This document shows positions 48,585 through 62,896 of a DNA stretch of 64,000 bases, one piece after another. The notes under the pieces were generated by a model that saw only the letters and a program-made list of their open reading frames with translations, did not search any database and was not told where the DNA came from. Source of the stretch: Clostridia bacterium (GTDB taxonomy: Bacteria; Bacillota; Clostridia; TANB77; CAG-465); contig JAQUGQ010000003.1 in assembly GCA_028684095.1 (NCBI GenBank), positions 4,979 through 68,978 of the forward strand. The letters are read 5' to 3'. The position numbers and the translations under genes are program-made. Every line of letters starts with the position of its first letter. The first letter of the stretch is position 1.

Positions 48585-50258
48585 CTATTTTAAAATACTA
48601 CTAATTATTCTACCCGTTGCTATACTTTCTATAATTCCATCATTTGAATTATTAGACCATTCAAAAGCATATTGTGCATTTTTATCATCAGTAGCATCTT
48701 TAACCATTACACTTATTATGCTTCTTTTTATATCAGATATTTTGTGTGTTTCATTCTTGTTAATTATATTTTGTAACTCCAGATACATACCAATATTAAT
48801 ATTCTCAAAATAAGATAGTCTATCTGTATTGTCATCATTTTTTAAATCCGGAGTACCATCCATATTATATTGTCCATAGAATAAATTATTTTCTTGCATT
48901 TCATCAGCTTTAGCAAGAATTTGAGTTCCTAAAGTTCTATTAATTTTTGCTATTCCTAACGCACTATAAAAAAACATATCTGTAGTGAAAGGTTCATTTG
49001 ATCCCCAATTGTTATCTATTTGATCCCAATTTTGTGCCATCCATCCATCACCTTTATCTGCATAATATTCGTATATATAACCAGCTGCATTCATACAACC
49101 CTGGCTATTAAGCATATTATTCATAAAGTATGTATACCACTCTAATCTACTTGTATATTCAGTATTTCCTGTAACTTCAAAAGCTGTTTGAAAAGCAGAG
49201 ACTATCATATCTGCATTTCCTAGTGAGTAAGTTGTTAATGAAGGATAGAATACATTATCACCAGCATGACTGAAAAATTCCGGAAATCCACCTTCAAGAA
49301 CATTTGGAAGTGTTCCACCTCCAGCTATTGTTGAGTAATATGCAGTATCTTGTAACCAACCTAACGTATTCATTAACTGTATACCAGTATTTTCATATTC
49401 ATGATTTTCTGTAATAGTAAATATTTTTAATTGTGCAATTGCTGCTAATGCAATATCCTGTATATATACCTCTTCATAATCATTTGCCCATCCTGTACTT
49501 TGTTTTCTTTGAGTTACTAAAAGCTTAATTGCTGCATTACCATAACTAGTTCCAGATACTATAGAACCATTTATTTGATCTCCAATTTCTATAGCCCTAG
49601 ATAAATATTCAATATCATTTGTATGTTGATATGCATCTAAAAGAGCAATTTCAATTATTGCATTACTTAACATACTTGTTCTTGGATTATTAGTGAAATT
49701 TGAAAATTGATTTGTATTTAAATTATAATTCCATAAAACACGTCCATACGGATAGCCAGTAACACCACCATTAGCAAGTGTAGTTGAATCTGCAAGAAAA
49801 TCTGTAATCATATCTGTTGTTTTAAGCCACACTAATGATTTCAGTAAATCTGCCTCAAGCATATCCAGTGTAATACCTACTTGTGTTGCCCATATTTCCT
49901 CACTTTCATTGTTTCCAACATATACTAACTTACCTTGTTGAATTTCATATTTTGCTGCATCCACTTCAGACATACTTGTTATATATTCCTTTATTGTTCC
50001 AGTTCCATCGCCAGTTCCATCCCATACTCCTACGTCAAATGTTGCTGAATCAAAAGAATTATCTTGTAAATATTCATTTGTTATAGCCATTGCAAGTTCT
50101 GAATTATATTCCGCTACATTTGATTTAAACACTGCTTCATTTGCTGATTCTATTGGATTATTATTTGCTAAGCTTAATATTACTGCTCCTGCTAATATTA
50201 TTATAACTATTATTGTTATAACTAATACAATTAATGATATACCTTTACTTTTTTTCAT
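48585..50258 (-). CDS. Pilin-like N-terminal module protein, paralog 1, with a large C-terminal domain possibly of glycoside-hydrolase-like (alpha/alpha) fold
   Basis: N-terminus MKKSKGISLIVLVITIIVIIILAGAVILSLANNNPIESANEA... is a prepilin-like leader with Gly-1 but Val at +5. The first ~110 aa are shared with three paralogs. The C-terminal 450 aa are unique. Confidence 0.6.
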   Translation of the reverse strand: MKKSKGISLIVLVITIIVIIILAGAVILSLANNNPIESANEAVFKSNVAEYNSELAMAITNEYLQDNSFDSATFDVGVWDGTGDGTGTIKEYITSMSEVDAAKYEIQQGKLVYVGNNESEEIWATQVGITLDMLEADLLKSLVWLKTTDMITDFLADSTTLANGGVTGYPYGRVLWNYNLNTNQFSNFTNNPRTSMLSNAIIEIALLDAYQHTNDIEYLSRAIEIGDQINGSIVSGTSYGNAAIKLLVTQRKQSTGWANDYEEVYIQDIALAAIAQLKIFTITENHEYENTGIQLMNTLGWLQDTAYYSTIAGGGTLPNVLEGGFPEFFSHAGDNVFYPSLTTYSLGNADMIVSAFQTAFEVTGNTEYTSRLEWYTYFMNNMLNSQGCMNAAGYIYEYYADKGDGWMAQNWDQIDNNWGSNEPFTTDMFFYSALGIAKINRTLGTQILAKADEMQENNLFYGQYNMDGTPDLKNDDNTDRLSYFENINIGMYLELQNIINKNETHKISDIKRSIISVMVKDATDDKNAQYAFEWSNNSNDGIIESIATGRIISSILK

Positions 50259-50712
50259 TTAAGATATCCTCCCATTTTTTTTAACTACATTAATTACAAT
50301 ATAAATTAACTAACAAGTCTATTATATATTATATATATTTTTTTATCAATGTTTTTCTAATAAATGTTATATTTTTTTAAAATTTAGAGAAGTGAAAAAG
50401 TAAATTTCACTTCTCTAATATCAAACCAGAAGTTACCTTTACAGTAAATTCTGGTTTAAAACAAAAGAAATGTTCAAATTACGAGAAATTTAAATGTATT
50501 AAAAGAGATTGTTCACTTGGTGCTTGTAACAAATGTCCAAGTATTATTAAATGTCATCTAAACAAGTACTTCTACTCTGCTTTAGATGCTTATGAAACTT
50601 TCCTTTTTAAATAATATGTGCAGATATATATTTTTAACACTAAATATTAAATAGGTGGTTTTGCTTGACAAACAACAGTTTTTAATATATAATTATATGA
50701 AAAATAAAGGAT

Positions 50713-61283: not shown

Positions 61284-61348
61284 AGACTTGATAGTTAATT
61301 TATAATATAATTAACATAGTTATTCAAAAGAAAAATGGAGGAATTTTA

Positions 61349-62896
61349 ATAAAAAAAAATAAAGGTATATCATTAATTGTATTAGTTATAACAATAATAG
61401 TTATAATAATATTAGCAGGTGCAGTGATATTATCACTAGCAAATAACAATCCAATAGAATCAGCAAATGAAGCAACGTTTAAAGCAAATGTAGCGGAATA
61501 TAATTCGGAACTTGCAATAAATTTAACGAACAAGTATTTACAAGATAATTCTTTTGATTCAGCTACATTTGATGCAGGAGTATGGGATGGAACTGGTGAT
61601 GGAACTGGAACAATAAAGGAATATATAACAGGTATTAAAACCAGTGATGCTAAAAATTTTGAAATACAATCTAGTAAGTTAGTTTATGTAGGAACAGATA
61701 ATTTAGAAGAACAATGGGTACTAGAATTAGGAATAACGTATGGTATAATACAATTTAATGGTTCAGTATTTAGTGAAGAAGCCCTATTTTATCAATATTG
61801 TTTAAAAACTCTAAAATATAAAACGGATAGTGAAAATGATATAGACACAGATGGTTACTTTGGACCTCAATCTCAAAGTGTATTGAATAAATTTATGCTA
61901 GCAGAAGGATTTACTGAATTTACAAGTGCTGCAAGAAATAAGCTTGTGGAATTGGCAAAAAACGAACCATATGAAGAATATATTACTGGATTTATTGCTA
62001 GTCAAAATAAACTAGAACATTTTTCATTTGTGTACAGTTGTTTATATAAAATAAATAATCATGATGATCCATTTTACTCTATAAATGTATTGAAAAATCT
62101 TCCATATATAGTTACTTCAGAGCCCTCTACACTATCTTATTCTTCAAAGATGGTTGCAGATACTATAAAAAATACTACCAAATTATTTGGATATGTAAAT
62201 TTGGGACCAAATAATCCAGGAGATCCGGAAATATCATGGGTAATGTCAGATTTGAATGCCATTAAAGATTCTATAAACAATTTAGCAGAAGCAGGATGGT
62301 ACGGAGTATTTATAGATCAATTTGGATATGATTGGCACGAAACTAGAGCAAGGCAAAATGAAATTGTAGATTATGCTCATAGTAAAGGCTTAAAAGTAAT
62401 GGCCAATTCTTGGTTTCCAGCTGATACATTTCTTGCAATAGTAAGTGAGGAACATAATCCTGATGGAATTGCTACTCACCTAAATTCAAATGATTTTTAT
62501 TTGATTGAAAGTTTTTATGTAGATGGAAGTAATTACAGAGCTAGTACCTCATATATAGACAAATATATACAAGCTATGCAATATCATAACATTAATGGTA
62601 TTAAAATTACTACATTATCATATAAATTTGATACTAAAAACTGGTTAGAAGCATCTGAGGATGTAAGAACATCATATATACTTGCTGAATGCTTAAATTA
62701 TAGCGGATGGTGGTTTGACGATGGTGAAAACAGTGATAATTTAGGTTATGGAAATGATCCAATTGTAGATTTGGGTACTTTTACACAATATTTAACATAT
62801 GATAGTGGAACAAAATATATTGCAAGAACAACACTATATACAATAGAATATAATGCTGATCCAGTACCTACTATTAACTTAATACCAAATCCATAA
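61349..62896 (+). CDS. Pilin-like N-terminal module protein, paralog 4 (PG-binding-like motif plus C-terminal TIM-barrel-like domain); canonical ATG start replaced by ATA
   Basis: RBS GGAGGAATTTTA is followed by ATA AAA AAA AAT AAA GGT ATA TCA..., where paralogs have ATG. The frame is open to 62896. The ORF track starts at an internal GTG (61424) that would lack the leader. Contains DTDGYFGPQSQSVLNKF, a PG-binding-like motif. Confidence 0.55.
   Translation: MKKNKGISLIVLVITIIVIIILAGAVILSLANNNPIESANEATFKANVAEYNSELAINLTNKYLQDNSFDSATFDAGVWDGTGDGTGTIKEYITGIKTSDAKNFEIQSSKLVYVGTDNLEEQWVLELGITYGIIQFNGSVFSEEALFYQYCLKTLKYKTDSENDIDTDGYFGPQSQSVLNKFMLAEGFTEFTSAARNKLVELAKNEPYEEYITGFIASQNKLEHFSFVYSCLYKINNHDDPFYSINVLKNLPYIVTSEPSTLSYSSKMVADTIKNTTKLFGYVNLGPNNPGDPEISWVMSDLNAIKDSINNLAEAGWYGVFIDQFGYDWHETRARQNEIVDYAHSKGLKVMANSWFPADTFLAIVSEEHNPDGIATHLNSNDFYLIESFYVDGSNYRASTSYIDKYIQAMQYHNINGIKITTLSYKFDTKNWLEASEDVRTSYILAECLNYSGWWFDDGENSDNLGYGNDPIVDLGTFTQYLTYDSGTKYIARTTLYTIEYNADPVPTINLIPNP

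Follow-up and report, generated by a model that had tools for sequence, protein, structure and literature searches.

The DNA analysed here (the window) is a stretch of 64,000 nucleotides from a Clostridia bacterium, with a G+C content of about 25%. It contains four genes, named here P1 to P4, whose products share an N-terminal module that resembles a type IV pilin and is joined to larger C-terminal domains (heads). The sequence of the window is the same as that of contig JAQWEW010000004.1 in the metagenome-assembled genome (MAG) GCA_028704735.1 ('Clostridia bacterium', locus tags PHD15_*); results for the source MAG refer to that assembly. In the list of open reading frames (ORFs) of the window, all four begin at the predicted places with an invariant [KR]G-ISLIVLVITIIVIIILAGAVILSLANNNPIES motif. 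P1 (48585-50258, minus strand) encodes 557 residues; its module is found at 49905-50258 and is followed by a C-terminal domain of 432 residues. P2 (57760-58984, minus strand) has a GTG start and an ORF of 366 residues (57884-58984), in which the module (58631-58984) is joined to a variable domain of the formylglycine-generating enzyme (FGE)/C-type-lectin type. P3 (PHD15_03190; 59399-60631, minus strand) encodes 410 residues and consists of the module (60278-60631), a linker and an FGE/C-type-lectin domain. P4 (61349-62896, plus strand) has ATA at the start-codon position, the module at 61349-61702, and a 390-residue domain without family assignment.

An earlier note, made from the sequence alone, had described these genes as paralogs which share an N-terminal module and then diverge, and the measured identities confirm this. 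The module comprises the first 118 residues or so; P1, P2 and P4 are 81-86% identical to P3 at the amino acid level, and DNA identity among the paralogs is 85-91.5% over 354 nt. The shared block had been put at about 110 residues. It is in fact slightly longer, at about 118 residues, and also includes about 100 nt of upstream promoter and leader DNA. Complete divergence past the module holds for P1 and P4 but not for P2 and P3, the bodies of which are still about 81% identical.

The upstream part of the repeat contains a Shine-Dalgarno sequence and a near-consensus promoter (TTGACA/16-17/TA(T/C)AAT). In P1, repeat comparison places the conserved unit (promoter and leader repeat) at 50259-50384 on the minus strand. 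Promoter-like sites are found at 59040-59067 for P2 (minus strand; TTGACA-16-TATAAT, 12/12, inside the conserved upstream unit), at 60697-60725 for P3 (minus strand; TTGACA-17-TACAAT) and at 61255-61283 for P4 (plus strand; TTGACA-17-TACAAT). The three top-ranking promoter-like sites in the region are all family promoters. P3 and P4 are divergent, and their promoters and N-terminal modules form a 395-nt inverted repeat (left arm 60345-60739, P3; right arm 61241-61635, P4) which is 93% complementary; 501 nt separate the arms.

Two of the four genes are irregular. P2 is frameshifted near codon 364 (57884-57894), and the conserved tail, IGPNTVLRSGAHNY...LAFRVTLYVM*, is found in another frame at 57760-57894. 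In P4 the codon at 61349 is ATA, in place of the ATG or GTG of its paralogs; its first canonical start is GTG at 61424, which lies within the hydrophobic helix and is where the public gene call begins. It should be kept in mind that a MAG with a 30-copy repeat family may contain assembly chimeras, which affects both the ATA start and the frameshifts. Recombination inside the inverted repeat would move the P3 ATG to P4 and the P4 ATA to P3.

The module opens with a short basic leader that ends in an invariant Gly. A hydrophobic helix of about 24 residues (ISLIVLVITIIVIIILAGAVIL) comes next; after a kink at NNNP there is another long helix, and then a small beta hairpin. The AlphaFold2 (AF2) model places the helices at residues 9-32 and 35-65, with the kink at NNNP. 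All four proteins have the leader MKKxKG. Conservation was assessed in 120 family representatives clustered at <=50% identity, which were also used for the census of partner domains described below. In these diverged proteins Gly(-1), Ser+2, Leu+6 and Thr+9 are invariant (in 40 closer representatives, Gly(-1) is >=90% conserved), and the conservation of these residues exceeds what a plain membrane anchor needs. As the earlier note had seen, Val replaces the canonical Glu at position +5. This is the case in all four proteins, and also in the pilins of the pilus operon described below and across the family.

Comparison with known proteins points to type IV pilins. A profile of the module was searched against 177,635 Protein Data Bank (PDB) sequences and gave two matches, Geobacter PilA-N (E 0.018) and MshA; both are type IV pilins, and from the leader onwards both align in register. 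The orthologous operon slot of more distant relatives holds a pilin that reads G-ITLIALVITIIVLLILAG. One of these pilins (G-ITLIALV, from locus L008; L-numbers denote fetched loci) passes the Pfam N_methyl model, with 22.9 bits against a cutoff of 21.2, and hhalign aligns the module profile with it at a probability of 97.4% (E 1e-11). Some homologues are named PilE or PulG in the JGI source annotation.

The strongest link between the module and pili is a type IV pilus operon, which the earlier note had proposed to look for. It is found on contig 1 of the source MAG (JAQWEW010000001.1, L001) and encodes PilM/N-like and PilO-like proteins, two small proteins, tandem pilins, three pilin-like ORFs, PilB (MshEN+T2SSE), PilT and PilC (T2SSF). 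The tandem pilins (PHD15_00735 and its neighbour, 121 and 123 residues) begin with MKKGISLIVLVITIIVIIILAGAVILSLANNNPI, and their first 34 residues are identical to the module. The N-terminus of the window proteins is thus pilin-like, as the note had claimed: it is identical to that of the pilins of this operon and homologous to an N_methyl-positive pilin. Operon order and pilin motif are kept in four other genomes, including Clostridium sp. CAG:1219, with the identity of the neighbouring gene falling to as low as 37%. The PilO-like protein (L001:8238-9041) has a run of about 13 PTTTT repeats, which is probably an extended or glycosylated linker. From these comparisons we conclude that the module is best described as a non-canonical type IV pilin-like carrier, and not as a formal member of the N_methyl family.

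The position at which a prepilin peptidase gene, pilD, would be expected in this operon is occupied by an unusual ORF (L001:10916-11764). An A24_N domain (PF06750, E 2e-31) is followed by two transmembrane segments, and a minor pilin with a canonical KSG-VFIIE start completes the ORF in the same frame; the public annotation calls the pilin part alone. This fusion is kept in five genomes at 79-37% identity (L004-L007, around 10001-10880). In distant relatives the same slot holds PilD-like proteins of 268-277 residues (L008:7610-8425, L009:10001-10834 and L010:9950-10756), in which a GIDKE motif is present and a GGGD[VI]K motif is absent. The C-terminal half of the L009 protein fails to align with the canonical PilD of L011. 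The earlier note had named the lack of an encoded prepilin peptidase as a finding that would count against its proposal, and here the picture is mixed, as the operon retains A24_N without the catalytic Peptidase_A24 domain. As the window encodes a ComEC homologue, the organism may also possess a Com pilus elsewhere, with its own prepilin peptidase, which could process the module proteins.

The family is far larger than the four members first described. The source MAG holds at least 30 module genes. A search with P3 gave 6,051 matches, and among the best 120 were at least 24 FGE-type paralogs from the source MAG. The DNA of the source MAG surveyed for the module, and for the elements of retroelements discussed below, comprised the window and five other loci, approximately 150 kb in all; it contains 23 module-bearing ORFs, which occur in small tandem groups amid housekeeping genes. 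Several of these are disrupted. On contig 7 (L012), the member at 8188-9522 has its tail out of frame (…RGGAVTAIVVATTQLL…), and another is split into a 142-residue carrier ORF (15376-15804) and a 235-residue head ORF (15886-16593; P0118). Among paralog pairs, the similarity of the N-terminal modules does not track that of the bodies, which indicates mosaic relations between stem and body.

In the wider search, at E<=1e-3, the module profile matched 14,384 clusters formed at the 50% identity level, and at E<=1e-10 it matched 2,677; the hydrophobic segment can inflate weak matches, and the E<=1e-10 tier was relied on. The match is always at residues 1 to about 135, in proteins of 126-1236 residues. 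Stand-alone module proteins of 125-200 residues also exist. Among the 120 representatives, the partner domains are LRR_5 (25), Laminin_G_3 (17), LRR_8 (16), ALK/LTK glycine-rich (6), MucBP (5) and FGE-sulfatase (4); cadherin-like, discoidin, dockerin, GH113 and other domains also occur. The proposal that one modular N-terminus carries many different C-terminal domains is thus borne out. The heads were supposed to be a set of enzymes; the census shows mostly binding partners rather than catalytic ones, and across the family the heads are predicted to be mostly binding modules.

The heads of P1 and P4 were more difficult to classify. P1 had been called hydrolase-like, a claim which comes down to a single family match, a partial C5-epim_C domain (25.9 bits over 50 residues). 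This hints at an alpha/alpha-barrel glycan-active domain. The P1 domain gave no match among PDB sequences, and local BLAST found no homologue of it among the collected proteins and loci. The head of P4, for which a peptidoglycan-binding motif and a TIM barrel had been suggested, had no match in Pfam, NCBIfam or PDB sequences, and the suggestion is without support there; it has one homologue (P0280, 62% identity) among the collected proteins and loci.

P2 and P3 have a different kind of head. The full-length AF2 model of P3 has a mean predicted local distance difference test (pLDDT) score of 92.9 and consists of the module (residues 1-126), a low-confidence linker (about 131-140) and a C-terminal C-type-lectin (C-Lec) domain. 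Foldseek matched this domain to PvdO (2e-6), TaqVP (4e-6), TvpA (3e-5) and FGE (7e-5). TaqVP and TvpA are variable proteins of diversity-generating retroelements (DGRs). A PDB sequence search with P3 gave no useful match, and Pfam FGE-sulfatase matches to P2 and P3 are weak (E 3e-3 and 0.037) and below the cutoff. The last residues of P3 (373-410; 59402-59515, minus strand; RGG...FRVVLYIL) resemble a DGR variable region (VR), being hypervariable and rich in NNY codons. An alignment of 22 source-MAG paralogs gives the tail pattern RGGxYxxSGSxxPAAxRxxxxxTxxxxxLxFRVxLYIL. Variation is concentrated at discrete positions and diversity peaks in the last 40 or so residues. The position of the FGE catalytic cysteines falls in this hypervariable tail (Y/C/F/S/H), and P3 has a single Cys there.

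Codon usage in the tail is also distinctive. In the 13 source-MAG paralogs for which DNA was available, third codon positions are 83% pyrimidine in the tail (26% C) compared with 36% (3% C) elsewhere in the genes. Four-fold degenerate codons end in a pyrimidine in 76% of cases in the tail and 19% elsewhere (Fisher p 9e-59), and the ratio of C to T in NNY codons is 77:108 in the tail and 135:1235 elsewhere (Fisher p 1e-24). In the closest paralog pairs, the tail differs 3-4 times more than the body, mainly at codon positions 1 and 2 (for example, [8,9,2] and [12,10,5] differences at the three positions). As far as can be judged from sequence, this pattern is the AAY-to-NNY footprint of DGRs. 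The earlier note had read P2 and P3 as FGE/SUMF1 enzymes. This reading is not upheld: the position of the catalytic Cys is hypervariable, the fold fits DGR variable proteins equally well, and the codons bear a DGR-type signature. The heads of P2 and P3 would therefore be variable adhesin heads and not sulfatase-maturing enzymes, with adhesion as the presumed function.

DGR cassettes are found next to the same kind of gene in relatives of the source organism. For the DGR scan, 78 metagenomic loci encoding an FGE/C-type-lectin head were fetched. In L036, a locus from a gut relative, a template repeat (TR) was found by scanning for tail-compatible sequence with differences allowed at adenines alone. 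The cassette encodes a 407-residue target (KRG-ISLIVLIVTIIVIIILAAAV module and FGE-sulfatase tail), a MutS_I protein, a bAvd-like protein and a reverse transcriptase (RT) which carries IGNFSSQ...YIDD; the TR is directly downstream of the RT. Nineteen VRs from other loci are >=90% A-compatible with this TR. Of 526 mismatches, 72% are at TR adenines, compared with an A content of 32%, and most are at codon positions 1 and 2. The small MutS_I-domain protein (L036:4115-4525), which lies between the target and Avd, looks like the MutS-like accessory (Msl) that has been reported in DGRs of Bacteroides.

A second cassette, L093, is found in MAG GCA_036653755.1, the same assembly as one of the orthologous pilus operons (L006). 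It encodes an 827-residue target which starts MKKRG-ISLIVLVVTIIVIIILAGAV, together with bAvd and RT, and has a 133-nt TR; this TR and the VR differ at 23 positions, of which 19 are TR adenines. The target (L093:4595-7078) has the module, two long internal repeats (…VSPNTSEWTKNNVTITISHANIPVGYELQYKIGSGNW…) and a C-Lec variable head, and the repeats may therefore be stalk-like spacers, for which there is room between stem and head. Where two strains have almost the same gene body, their VRs differ at codon positions 1 and 2, with the third base kept.

Taken together, the module is probably the carrier of a class of type IV pilin-like proteins that is non-canonical and specific to this lineage, with P2 and P3 bearing DGR-type variable adhesin heads. 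The modular proteins would insert in the membrane like prepilins and would be taken up by the PilB/PilC/PilMNO machinery through the shared stem. The heads could then be displayed at the pilus tip, as rare subunits, beside the pilus or on short pseudopili, where they would mediate attachment. Each copy would bring its own strong promoter. Recombination among the conserved 5' units would homogenise the stems and swap the heads, and may silence copies; the P4 ATA, the P2 frameshift and the inverted repeat are candidate outcomes or substrates of such events. The heads of P2 and P3 would be shaped by A-to-N retro-mutagenesis, now or recently, with the DGR adding further variation to the lectin heads. 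What has been observed is the paralogy, the identity with the pilins of the operon, the fold of the head, its codon signature and the DGR cassettes of relatives; from these we infer leader cleavage, filament assembly, adhesion and DGR activity in the source genome.

Several observations weigh against this interpretation. Glu at +5, the hallmark of assembling pilins, is absent, and the window proteins are unmatched by N_methyl (PF07963) and the NCBIfam pilin models even at E<=1-10. No pilus genes were found across the whole 64-kb window, where the search turned up only housekeeping, sporulation and ComEC genes; the four genes sit among housekeeping genes, and none is near pilus genes. No catalytic Peptidase_A24 domain was found in the source-MAG pilus operon, including the PilD slot, and in the PilD-like proteins of L008 and L009 Pfam recognises A24_N alone; leader cleavage is for this reason unproven. 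P2 and P4 may be pseudogenes. With respect to the DGR, neither TR nor RT was found in the surveyed source-MAG loci by BLAST, by a scan for A-biased repeats or by a scan for A-compatibility, and none of 120 RT homologues is labelled as coming from the source MAG. The source-MAG tails show background-level compatibility with the TRs of L036 and L093, and in one ortholog pair from two sister MAGs the VRs are identical. DGR activity in the source genome is consequently deduced from the footprint. On this basis past activity is likely; present activity is possible, with the chances lying against it.

The alternative that survives best concerns the tails. The tails of P2, P3 and the 22 paralogs could have arisen by duplication, diversifying selection and gene conversion, with a DGR that never acted or is inactive. 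This is a serious possibility, if the lesser one. It would account for the missing TR and RT and for the identical VRs of the sister MAGs, and the disruption of several copies is in keeping with it. It also agrees with the third codon positions, where the choice of C or T differs by subgroup and does not suit a single template. A single TR for all 24 tails was considered and rejected on these grounds. Selection at the protein level, however, leaves the codon shift unexplained in a genome of 25% GC, and in close relatives that share this pilus operon, a protein of the same architecture is accompanied by a DGR that looks functional. The absence of a cassette must also be set against the way in which DGR loci are assembled: they are often on short unbinned contigs, and most of the RT matches are on contigs of 1-3 kb. 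The extra tail copies in the source-MAG loci are displaced tails of disrupted paralogs, and nothing else.

A second alternative accepts the class III-type signal and places the proteins outside pili, either as binders anchored in the membrane or wall in the manner of pseudopilins, or as substrates of release like that of a type II secretion system. We regard it as rather unlikely. In its favour, one filament could hardly accommodate dozens of bulky heads per genome, the heads are binding modules, and the genes are all located apart from the pilus operon, each with a promoter of its own. There is an archaeal precedent, as sugar-binding proteins of archaea have pilin signals which lack Glu5. In the Sulfolobus bindosome, a pilin-type signal of this sort, processed by PibD, delivers many substrate-binding proteins through a pilus-like ATPase and a membrane protein. 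There the signal peptide alone is shared, whereas here it is a whole pilin-like domain of about 118 residues. The module is moreover a complete small domain which also stands alone in proteins of 125-140 residues, and modular pilins are documented as being polymerised into filaments (PMC8179133). Nothing in the present evidence separates non-pilus anchoring from display at the tip.

A third alternative is that the N-terminus is an ordinary uncleaved signal-anchor, or a Sec signal, of a recently amplified group of membrane-tethered exoproteins, in which case the likeness to pilins would be superficial and the pilus machinery uninvolved. The lack of a pilin model match, of Glu5 and of a Peptidase_A24 domain are all as expected from this explanation; module fold searches gave no significant match, and NCBIfam gave weak FliL-like matches to the transmembrane region. 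It is nonetheless improbable. The 34 N-terminal residues are those of pilins inside a PilMNO/PilB/PilT/PilC operon in five genomes, Gly(-1) and the helix residues are invariant across thousands of diverged proteins, the only matches among PDB sequences are pilins, and hhalign aligns the module with an N_methyl-positive pilin at 97%. Finally, it is very improbable that P2 and P3 act as FGE/EgtB/PvdO-family enzymes anchored at the surface: in favour are the weak Pfam matches, the fit of the fold to FGE and PvdO, and the name 'SUMF1/EgtB/PvdO family nonheme iron enzyme' that NCBI gives to some paralogs, and against it are the hypervariable catalytic region with its single Cys in P3, the equal fit to DGR variable proteins and the site at which FGE acts, which is inside the cell or endoplasmic reticulum on unfolded sulfatases and is at odds with a pilin stem.

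tRNA genes are present between family members (at 51939, 52028 and 55035), as the earlier note had pointed out, but so are ordinary housekeeping genes, including those for YchF, an ABC transporter, a HAD hydrolase, TsaD and others. A tRNA-linked insertion of a mobile element was considered and rejected, as the window has no integrase or phage genes and the gene order around the tRNAs is normal. A ComEC homologue with Competence and Lactamase_B domains is found at 38085-40517. Five further ORFs, all on the minus strand and encoding 208-409 residues (8396-9412, 13340-14065, 26678-27304, 35950-37179 and 37332-38006), have no Pfam family at E<=1e-3.

A more far-reaching version of the proposal can be put forward, although we consider it unlikely in full. 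In this version, a clade of low-GC Clostridia from bioreactor and gut metagenomes has a type IV system without Glu5 and without a canonical peptidase, in which one invariant stem serves at least 30 interchangeable heads per genome. Each head gene would be a self-contained cassette of promoter and stem, open to shuffling or silencing by recombination, as the P4 ATA, the P2 frameshift and the inverted repeat would exemplify, and a DGR would act in trans on about two dozen lectin heads. If true, few known DGR target sets would be as large, and none before it would have been on a type IV filament. If the narrower reading holds, the idea of the modular pilin is extended to a lineage with a massively reused carrier, and the question is raised of how a filament assembles when Glu5, and perhaps a canonical peptidase too, is lacking. 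In monoderm bacteria of the gut and of digesters, DGR hypermutation would also be connected with type IV pilin-like adhesins, and this could bear on their attachment to hosts, particles or partner cells.

The earlier note had considered it uncommon for pilin-like anchors to be fused to catalytic domains. This view is outdated, as modular pilins occur widely and number over 1,200 proteins in 264 architectures (PMC8179133). In Streptococcus sanguinis, for example, the module of PilB is a vWA domain and that of PilC is a ConA-like lectin (Raynaud et al. 2021, PMC8179133). In its AF2 model P3 has the modular-pilin layout of a pilin module, a short linker and a module which is not specific to pilus biology, and Laminin_G_3/ConA-like lectin domains are frequent partners in both sets. 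There are several differences. Modular pilins are defined by IPR012902/N_methyl with Glu5, and the window proteins miss both the motif and Glu5; because of that definition, the published census (PMC8179133) would have missed the family. Type IV filaments are generally identified through the N_methyl/Glu5 motif, and thousands of pilin-borne surface proteins of uncultured Clostridia are therefore probably annotated as 'hypothetical' or misnamed as 'SUMF1/EgtB/PvdO enzyme'. Here there are also dozens of copies per genome, found outside the pilus operon and each with a conserved promoter. The stem is that of a putative major pilin and not of a dedicated minor pilin, and a subset has DGR-type heads. 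Minor (pseudo)pilins of the GspK type have an extra domain, lack Glu5 and are found at the filament tip (PMC8179133). In those systems only one subunit is without Glu5, whereas Val at +5 is here seen in the putative major pilins as well.

The heads of P2 and P3 have their closest counterparts in the DGR proteins TvpA of Treponema denticola (PDB 2Y3C) and TaqVP of Thermus aquaticus (PDB 5VF4). They are alike in fold (Foldseek 4e-6 to 3e-5), in having a C-terminal variable region which ends in ...GFRxxL, and in their NNY codons; relatives of the source organism add A-specific TR/VR mismatches, Avd and RT. Unlike TvpA, which is a lipoprotein, and TaqVP, which has a different N-terminal part, the head is here on a pilin-like stem. 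The source genome also differs in having 24 paralogs, with no cassette seen in the loci examined. A full-text literature search gave no paper linking DGRs to type IV pilin fusions, save for one brief reference to a VR within a 'GspG-type pilin' domain. The system is unusual in four respects: Glu5 has been lost even from the putative major pilins, a PilD remnant without a peptidase domain is joined to a minor pilin, the stem is reused in at least 30 copies per genome, and there is a link to DGRs. For the last of these, the nearest parallel is found in Bacteroides, where type V pilus tip adhesins have a C-terminal C-Lec head that is diversified by a DGR (bioRxiv 10.1101/2024.11.15.621889). In both cases a DGR targets a C-Lec head, there of a pilus subunit and here of a putative one, and a MutS-like accessory is also present in the L036 cassette. 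The Bacteroides pili are of type V, are assembled by strand exchange and belong to diderm Bacteroidota, whereas the proteins described here are type IV-like and belong to monoderm Clostridia.

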